From: a virus
Lineage: Duplodnaviria; Heunggongvirae; Uroviricota; Caudoviricetes
Reading direction: 5' to 3' (one strand)
IMG/VR virus record: IMGVR_UViG_2690316131_000006
Length of the DNA stretch: 14,375 nucleotides
The notes under the pieces were generated by a model. It worked only from the letters and a program-made list of their open reading frames with translations. It did no database searches and was not told where the DNA came from. How positions within the stretch are numbered: the first letter of the stretch is position 1; every line of letters starts with the position of its first letter. The translations under genes were made by a program, and so were the position numbers. This document shows positions 3,310 through 4,272 of this stretch, piece by piece.

Positions 3310-3846
3310 ATGAGCAGCAAGCTTCATGGTCTTGTCTGGGAAGGGTGCGCCTTCACCGGCATGATCTTATCCAGGGTGGCGGTTATGGCCCGTCTTGCAG
3401 ACTACAGCAATGACGAGGGCGTGTCATGGCCTGCCATTGAAACTATCCGGCGTCAGATCGGTGCAAGAAGTGAATCCACAGTGAAATCGGCTATTGCAGA
3501 ACTGGCGAAAGAGGGCTGGCTGACGAAGGAAGAGCGTAAGGTCGGTGGGCGTAATGTAAGCAATATCTATCGGCTTAATGTGGAAAAACTCGAAGCAGCT
3601 GCGGCGGCGGCGCGTGAGTCATATAAACCGAAAAGAAAAATTAGCCCGGCAAAAAATGACCCGTTAACAGTTGACCCGTCAAATATTGACCCCTCAACGG
3701 TTGACCCGTCAAATTTTGATGGATCAACTGTTGATAAAAAACTGCCGATTAGGGGGCCGATGATTGACCCCGATCCGTCAGTATTAAAACCTGATCCGTC
3801 AGATAAAAGATCTTCTTGTCCGGACGCTTCGCAACCGGACCCGTAG
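3310..3846 (+). CDS. Replication initiator (O-like), N-terminal DNA-binding domain and Pro/Asp-rich linker; ends at an in-frame TAG
   Basis: ATG 3310 preceded by GGGGG; HTH-like region ARLADYSNDEGVSWPAIETIRRQIGARSESTVKSAIAELAKEGWL; linker encoded by the iteron array; TAG at 3844..3846. Confidence 0.7.
   Translation: MSSKLHGLVWEGCAFTGMILSRVAVMARLADYSNDEGVSWPAIETIRRQIGARSESTVKSAIAELAKEGWLTKEERKVGGRNVSNIYRLNVEKLEAAAAAARESYKPKRKISPAKNDPLTVDPSNIDPSTVDPSNFDGSTVDKKLPIRGPMIDPDPSVLKPDPSDKRSSCPDASQPDP
3656..3742. repeat. Iteron array (candidate replication origin): six 12-bp TTGAC-cc-GTCAA-type palindromes at exact 15-bp spacing, followed by an A-rich tract
   Basis: Copies at 3656, 3671 (TTGACCCGTCAA), 3686 (TTGACCCCTCAA), 3701 (TTGACCCGTCAA), 3716 (TTGATGGATCAA), 3731 (half-site, TTGATAAAAAAC); inside the O-like gene as in λ ori. 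Confidence 0.6.
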
Positions 3847-3888
3847 ACGGCTGAACAGGATTTTTTAACCCGACACCCTGACGCGGTT

Positions 3889-4272
3889 GTGTTCAGTGCG
3901 AAAAAACGCCAGTGGGGAAGTCAGGAAGATTTGGTGTGCGCACAGTGGATCTGGGGACGAATCGTGAGTCTTTACGAGCAGGCGGCCAGCTATGATGGCG
4001 AGATCACTAGACCGAAAGAACCCAACTGGACAGCATGGGCCAATGACGTTCGCACAATGCGGATGCTGGATGGCAGAACTCACAGACAAATTTGTGAAAT
4101 GTTTGGGCGTCTCCAGCGGGATTCGTTCTGGGTAAAAAACATCATGAGTCCGGCAAAACTCCGGGAAAAATGGGATGAACTGGTTATCCGCCTGGGGCGT
4201 TCGCCTGCGCAGCGTTGCGTGAATCACATTTCTGAACCGGACACTGAAATACCGCCGGGATTCAGGGGGTGA
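3889..4272 (+). CDS. C-terminal part of the O-like replication protein (possibly DnaT-like), same frame as 3310..3846 and separated from it only by the TAG
   Basis: Open frame runs continuously from 3847 to 4272 in frame with the upstream ORF; the first start codon after the TAG is GTG 3889 with no Shine-Dalgarno; stop lies 6 nt before the DnaC-like gene. Confidence 0.5.
   Translation: MFSAKKRQWGSQEDLVCAQWIWGRIVSLYEQAASYDGEITRPKEPNWTAWANDVRTMRMLDGRTHRQICEMFGRLQRDSFWVKNIMSPAKLREKWDELVIRLGRSPAQRCVNHISEPDTEIPPGFRG

Follow-up and report, generated by a model that had tools for sequence, protein, structure and literature searches.

In bacteriophage lambda, the replication initiator O binds DNA through its N-terminal region and the P protein through its C-terminal region, with a flexible linker between the two, and the origin (ori-lambda) is located inside gene O itself (PMC6022878). 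Amber alleles of lambda O behave as nulls on sup0 hosts, where phages whose O retains 160, 205 or 294 of its 299 residues do not plate, whereas on supE they plate normally (PMC6022878). Rescue in trans is inefficient even for lambda O (PMC6022878). Among E. coli prophages, the nearest counterpart of the gene described here encodes WP_000095675.1, a single 320-aa polypeptide found in the ST131-type prophage and in many others, and the initiator of the O157 Sakai prophage Sp12 is also close (98.9% nucleotide identity). The loci encoding WP_000095675.1 share a neighbourhood in which CI, Cro and YdaT genes lie upstream of the initiator and DnaC-like, DUF1627 and DUF977 genes lie downstream.

The whole stretch of DNA that was analysed (the window, 14,375 nucleotides) is one entire contig, CYDD01000081.1, from the draft E. 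coli assembly GCA_001284925.1, which is made up of short contigs. It carries an initiator gene with the layout of lambda O, comprising a predicted origin-binding N-terminal part, a linker whose coding DNA carries iterons and a C-terminal domain expected to recruit the helicase loader, and this gene is interrupted by an amber codon, as in the lambda mutants Oam317, Oam8, Oam125 and Oam205. In the alignment with lambda O, the stop corresponds to approximately residue 170, which places it between the truncations of Oam317 (160 aa) and Oam8 (205 aa), and Oam125 is a CAG to TAG change too (PMC6022878). Unlike the lambda alleles, which are laboratory mutants, the allele in the window is natural and lies in a resident prophage. 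Its N-terminal domain is of the HTH_36 type, with no Pfam match to the lambda-O N-terminal family, and its partner gene is DnaC-like rather than lambda P. We consider it very likely that this is a recent loss-of-function nonsense mutation, in which C to T at 3844 converted Gln179 to an amber codon, in the lambda-O-type initiator of a DicB/Hok-bearing lambdoid E. coli prophage. By analogy with lambda, it would represent a rare natural "O-amber" null allele that leaves the prophage replication-defective. The features of the window are collected in Table 1.

Table 1. Features of the window that bear on the interrupted initiator gene and on the state of the prophage.
Feature	Position	Strand	Description and evidence
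IS1 end (1-102) and dicB remnant (104-148)	1..148	-	Remnant is the first ~15 codons; the contig starts inside IS1
DicF antisense RNA	323-374	-	Rfam, above gathering score
CI-type LexA-family repressor gene, intact	1884-2600	-	Pfam; source-contig gene calls; near-identical ST131-type locus
P22-Cro-like gene, intact	2650-2865	+	Pfam; source-contig gene calls; ST131-type locus
YdaT-family gene, intact	2862-3287	+	Pfam; source-contig gene calls; ST131-type locus
5' part of the O-like initiator gene	3310..3846	+	178 sense codons and premature TAG; winged-helix domain (residues ~1-104) and entire disordered linker
Iteron array, presumed prophage origin	3651..3735		4-5 units of GACCCGTCAAnnnTTGA-like sequence at 15-bp spacing, in linker-coding DNA
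Amber codon	3844..3846	+	C to T at 3844, CAG (Gln179) to TAG; sole mismatch in pairwise alignment against NZ_CP023844.1
Rest of the initiator gene, downstream of the stop	3847..4272	+	Codons 180-320 and TGA; C-terminal domain (lambda O C-terminal homology) and DnaT-like tail
Candidate in-frame restarts in 3847..4272	GTG 3889; GTG 3934	+	GTG 3889 without Shine-Dalgarno; GTG 3934 with AGGAAG 5 nt upstream; sequence reading
DnaC-like helicase-loader gene, intact	4279..5019	+	Pfam IstB_IS21 (E 1.5e-19) and Bac_DnaA; PHROG 50 'DnaC-like helicase loader' (E 1e-81); same length as the FORC_042 homologue
sok antitoxin RNA, beside hokD	7164-7338	+	Rfam, above gathering score
sRNA STnc100	13542-13734	+	Rfam, above gathering score
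Anti-GcvB sRNA AgvB	13736-13797	-	Rfam, above gathering score
Full-length genes: CI-type repressor, Cro, YdaT, DnaC-like, DUF1627, DUF977, DUF551, hokD, DUF968, RusA, antiterminator Q, RelE-type toxin with HTH partner, TerB			Lengths compared with FORC_042 or the ST131-type locus

The preliminary description of this DNA had reported two open reading frames, 3310..3846 and 3889..4272, lying in the same frame and separated by the amber codon and 14 sense codons, and this was confirmed in the sequence. ATG 3310, the TAG, GTG 3889 and the TGA at 4270-4272 share one frame, with 579 nt (193 codons) from the ATG to GTG 3889 and the 14 sense codons at 3847-3888. It was also correct that GTG 3889 has no Shine-Dalgarno sequence, as there is no such run in the preceding CCCTGACGCGGTT. 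A second in-frame GTG at 3934 is preceded, across a 5-nt spacer, by AGGAAG (3923-3928), and the gene caller of the source assembly started the C-terminal ORF at this codon (3934..4272). The interval 2500-5200 contained no site resembling a promoter or terminator, and no Rfam family matched at the site of the stop codon. The product has already been deposited as CTW47175.1 ('putative prophage replication protein'), and the gene is a common, annotated prophage gene.

When joined, the two ORFs are 99.9% identical over 1081 nt to the intact 320-codon gene for WP_000095675.1, and with one base of difference over this length their juxtaposition is not due to chance. The gene is annotated in E. coli 4/1-1 as one 963-nt CDS (WP_000095675.1), from which the gene in the window differs solely by C to T at 3844, and the proteins are identical apart from codon 179, which is CAG in the intact prophages. 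The 1081-nt stretch was present in 1,513 of 5,426 complete E. coli genomes (megablast, at least 80% coverage), with best matches at 99.9% identity. The comparison was extended to 32 aligned homologues of 290-340 aa from Escherichia, Citrobacter, Salmonella, Edwardsiella, Serratia, Erwinia, Pantoea, Morganella, Klebsiella and Raoultella. Each of the 32, which represent nine or more enterobacterial genera, is one polypeptide that has a sense codon at the column of the stop, where the residue varies between Q, E, P, S and D, and cultured phages also annotate one single O gene. None of these homologues, aligned or listed, is natively split at the stop position; they have one uninterrupted frame for both domains, which the copy in the window lacks. 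The stop is therefore not conserved among relatives, which have sense residues at this column. The preliminary description had offered a nonsense mutation in a decaying prophage as one of two readings, and it is supported both by the CAG codon of the intact homologues and by the insertion of IS1 in dicB described below.

Read through the stop, the frame encodes a 320-residue protein that is matched end to end by PHROG 391 ('replication initiation O-like', E 4e-115), of which the copy in the window is a presumed null allele, and its 5' part is also matched by PHROG 11896. Pfam HTH_36 was found at residues 25-71 (E 2e-6, above its own cut-off), and at E<=0.01 there was no other Pfam family apart from a sub-threshold DnaD_N. 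In an AF2 model built on the 32 homologues, for which the 99%-identical sequence P0003 was used, a confident N-terminal domain (1-104) is followed by a disordered linker (108-172, pLDDT < 50) and by a C-terminal domain (178-297) with block means of pLDDT mostly 84-96, dipping to 73-78 over 221-240. The Foldseek matches of the N-terminal domain were all winged helices of the MarR/ArsR/PadR type and were weak (E ~2e-3). The model and the profile matches together point to an N-terminal, sequence-specific DNA-binding winged-helix domain.

In BLASTP, residues 153-300 align with lambda O 145-277 at 35% identity (E 5e-26), which indicates that the C-terminal domain is homologous to the helicase-loader-binding domain of lambda O. 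Lambda O residues 1-144 gave no significant similarity to the initiator in the same BLASTP comparison, and in a protein expected to work like O, the N-module, judged by sequence, is of a different type and not of the N-terminal family of lambda O. With tblastn, the O genes of lambda, 21, phi80, H-19B and many Stx phages were matched, some phages sharing residues 1-183 only and others 182-300 only. The label 'O-like initiator' holds with the qualifications that the N-module is not of lambda O type and that the partner is DnaC-like, not P-like. The earlier claim that the initiator is split between its DNA-binding and C-terminal domains is borne out by PHROG 391, the lambda O alignment and the AF2 domain boundary, which agree. 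The stop takes the place of the second residue in helix 178-188, the first of the C-terminal domain. Its column comes shortly after the conserved CPDASQPD motif and shortly ahead of the invariant F185, R188, P190 and A192.

The iterons in the linker-coding DNA are presumed to be the origin of the prophage, by analogy with the position of ori-lambda. Their units also form a 33-nt imperfect inverted repeat, and the local GC minimum lies at the iterons (0.38-0.42), which is a modest dip. They are upstream of the stop and are untouched by the TAG. Around the mutation itself, the 17 nt at 3838-3854 (GACCCGTAGACGGCTGA) resemble an iteron unit at 76%, and C to T at 3844 turns GACCCGC into GACCCGT, the core heptamer of the iterons. 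This match is probably due to chance, a templated or recurrent mutation being conceivable.

The markers present in the window (the DicF RNA, the dicB remnant, ydfA/ydfC-like genes, hokD/sok and YdaT) are those of the DicB/DicF/YdfA-C and Hok/Sok family of lambdoid prophages. These markers, and decay by point mutation and IS insertion, presumably place the element beside the K-12 cryptic prophages Qin (and Rac). Compared with Qin and Rac, however, the element in the window keeps a complete replication module and most of its early and late-regulatory genes, and is at a much earlier stage of decay. The first 102 nucleotides of the window match, at 100% identity, ends that carry the annotation IS1 family transposase at approximately 72,000 places in the genome collection, similarity to related prophages (FORC_042) begins at window position 103, and the Pfam DicB profile matches at its positions 1-15 only. 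Next to the IS1 end lies what remains of dicB, about 15 codons, so IS1 interrupts this gene, and this is a second inactivating lesion in the same prophage. The helicase-loader gene directly downstream of the initiator is of the DnaC type, not the lambda P type, and it presumably encodes the partner of the initiator's C-terminal domain. Because the other genes of the window are equal in length to their counterparts in FORC_042 or the ST131-type locus, decay of the element is slight and the mutation young.

The rarity of the TAG allele was determined with a 71-nt probe centred on the TAG, which was matched against complete E. coli genomes. The stretch is carried by 1,725 complete E. coli genomes, in none of which the probe had a 100% match, and the TAG-containing pattern was not found in the GTDB representative genomes, the JGI metagenome contigs or IMG/VR. 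In a collection of 15 billion proteins, the intact 320-aa protein was present on at least 1000 contigs, and a look-up of the exact 178-aa product led to six. Two of these have the true TAG allele, namely the contig of the window, which was recorded from two samples, and the Logan assembly of SRR30894224. The SRR30894224 contig has the same TAG with three synonymous differences from the window over 1123 nt, one of which, an Ala-repeat variant, is shared with a further natural haplotype (L004), and its nearest complete-genome sequence is the common haplotype, at 99.6%. The TAG is therefore a rare allele on two slightly different backgrounds, for which shared descent, recombination or recurrence are all conceivable.

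The other four of the six contigs (L003, L004, L006 and L007) do not show recurrence. Their sequence stops at 3843/3844, any visible base at this point being C, and they are contig-end truncations that were picked up because the look-up was by exact length. The contig ends might be taken for an assembly fork at a variant site, but they are an ascertainment effect, as the cluster holds partial proteins of many other lengths. A 127-aa C-terminal ORF found on more than 24 contigs was likewise rejected as a natural split: all of these have CAG, and the 127-aa calls result from contig starts (L008, L009, L015), homopolymer frameshifts or an internal deletion (L017). The frameshifts, which are in the region equivalent to window 3740-3880, are homopolymer changes (T6 to T5, C2 to C1, A4 to A3) in L010-L014 and L016 (SRR186816xx, ERR10496828). 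They come mostly from one project (SRR186816xx) and are probably sequencing artefacts that give spurious split-gene calls. Deamination at a Dcm site (CCWGG) was considered as a cause of the C to T change and rejected, since the context CCGCAGA contains no Dcm site.

One alternative is that the gene is really intact, with C at 3844, the stop having been introduced by sequencing or assembly. The stop is a single-base difference from a very common allele in a draft assembly of short contigs, and homopolymer errors do yield false splits of this gene in other public assemblies. However, site 3844 is outside any homopolymer, the same contig was recorded from two samples, and the independent run SRR30894224 shows the same TAG on a haplotype differing at three other positions. 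An error at 3844, against which the preliminary description had advised a check, is therefore very unlikely. The other reading in the preliminary description was a genuine two-polypeptide arrangement, in which the N-terminal fragment would cooperate with a C-terminal fragment restarted at GTG 3889 or GTG 3934. In its favour, the stop coincides with a true junction between modules, other phages combine N-modules (1-183) and C-modules (182-300) differently, PHROG 2357 is a 124-position profile covering the C-terminal domain only, and GTG 3934 has AGGAAG 5 nt upstream. Nevertheless, both restart codons are inside the conserved C-terminal domain. Restarting at V194 (GTG 3889) would lose the helix 178-188 with the invariant F185, R188, P190 and A192, and restarting at V209 (GTG 3934) would also lose the 194-203 hairpin with the invariant K199, R200, W202 and G203. 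The single-polypeptide homologues, the absence of the allele from the 1,725 complete genomes and the artefactual nature of the 127-aa calls argue against this arrangement as well, and so do the lambda O ambers of the corresponding region, which are null (PMC6022878). We found this arrangement unsupported and regard it as highly improbable.

The amber codon could instead be suppressed or leaky, with full-length initiator made through a host suppressor or near-cognate readthrough and a reduced level of replication kept. Because homologues differ at residue 179, the protein should tolerate nearly any amino acid inserted there, and a glutamine-inserting suppressor would restore the wild-type protein exactly; the lambda Oam phages that plate normally on supE hosts are a precedent (PMC6022878). 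However, the 14.4-kb window contains no tRNA gene. Natural isolates seldom carry amber suppressors, little readthrough occurs spontaneously, and lambda O is described as an unstable protein that is required in quantity. We regard suppression as very unlikely. The truncation might also have been selected, if the 178-aa origin-binding fragment and the iterons were kept to block phages with the same origin or to tame the resident prophage. The fragment retains the whole DNA-binding domain and the linker, the iterons are intact, the TAG is on two haplotypes, and lambda plasmids with oop and the ori-lambda iterons exclude rep-lambda phages (PMC3349717). This exclusion phenotype, however, needs oop RNA and the iterons, not an O fragment (PMC3349717). 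The extreme rarity of the allele argues against selection, and a random nonsense mutation in a dispensable prophage gene explains the data without it, which makes a selected truncation most improbable. A related proposal is that the fragment with the iterons is a dominant-negative origin blocker acting on the resident prophage or on incoming phages of its origin type, that the C to T change is recurrent and templated by the neighbouring iterons, or both. Either would explain the TAG on two haplotypes, and the rarity of the allele argues against both; we consider this proposal very unlikely, though a shade less so than the cooperating fragments or the selected truncation.

If a recent nonsense mutation is accepted, translation in a suppressor-free host would end after residue 178. 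The product would keep the winged-helix origin-binding domain and the flexible linker and would lose all of the C-terminal domain. In lambda O this domain recruits the helicase-loader complex, and its counterpart in the window would presumably recruit the adjacent DnaC-like protein. Because the iterons are intact, the fragment can probably still bind them, but it would not be able to nucleate a replisome. Since a fragment lacking the C-terminal domain could not do so, an induced prophage would be expected to fail to start its own theta replication. Rescue in trans by another prophage is possible in principle. The change itself would be neutral, as part of prophage decay, and the presence of the TAG on two slightly different haplotypes could point to recurrence or spread rather than to a one-off neutral hit.

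Nonsense mutations in prophage genes are routine. The allele is a natural counterpart of the classical lambda O amber mutants. It has little importance beyond annotation, where a single pseudogene (O-like initiator Q179*) should be recorded in place of the two ORFs. A score of probably replication-defective is appropriate for the prophage, with consequences for its predicted inducibility and for the mobilisation of its cargo. The prophage also provides an example of very early decay, in which the early region is intact apart from one point mutation and an insertion of IS1.

Further observations were made on the initiator gene and its surroundings. PHROG 2357, a family of ~124 positions annotated without a function, matches residues 188-309, which is the C-terminal domain alone. 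The last ~21 residues of the initiator (300-320, window 4207-4272; VNHISEPDTEIPPGFRG) weakly match the C-terminal tail of E. coli DnaT/primosomal protein I (PDB 2ru8, 6aep and 9zbt; E 0.01-0.03), and the tail may dock DnaC. The 'primosomal protein I' labels in phage records would follow from such a DnaT-like tail. The tail and the start of the DnaC-like gene are shared as a unit with Stx phages at 87% nucleotide identity. On the opposite strand, an ORF at 3865..4482 (205 codons) extends across the DNA for the C-terminal half of the initiator and into the start of the DnaC-like gene, and is partly called in the TAG-bearing Logan contig. It was rejected as a gene and is likely spurious, having a sub-threshold zf-CGNR match only and being unannotated in intact relatives. 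The prophage carries several regulatory RNAs, which are listed in Table 1. Its N6/N4 DNA methyltransferase gene (10766-11791, 341 aa) is intact, whereas the gene is frameshifted in FORC_042, the closest complete-genome relative.
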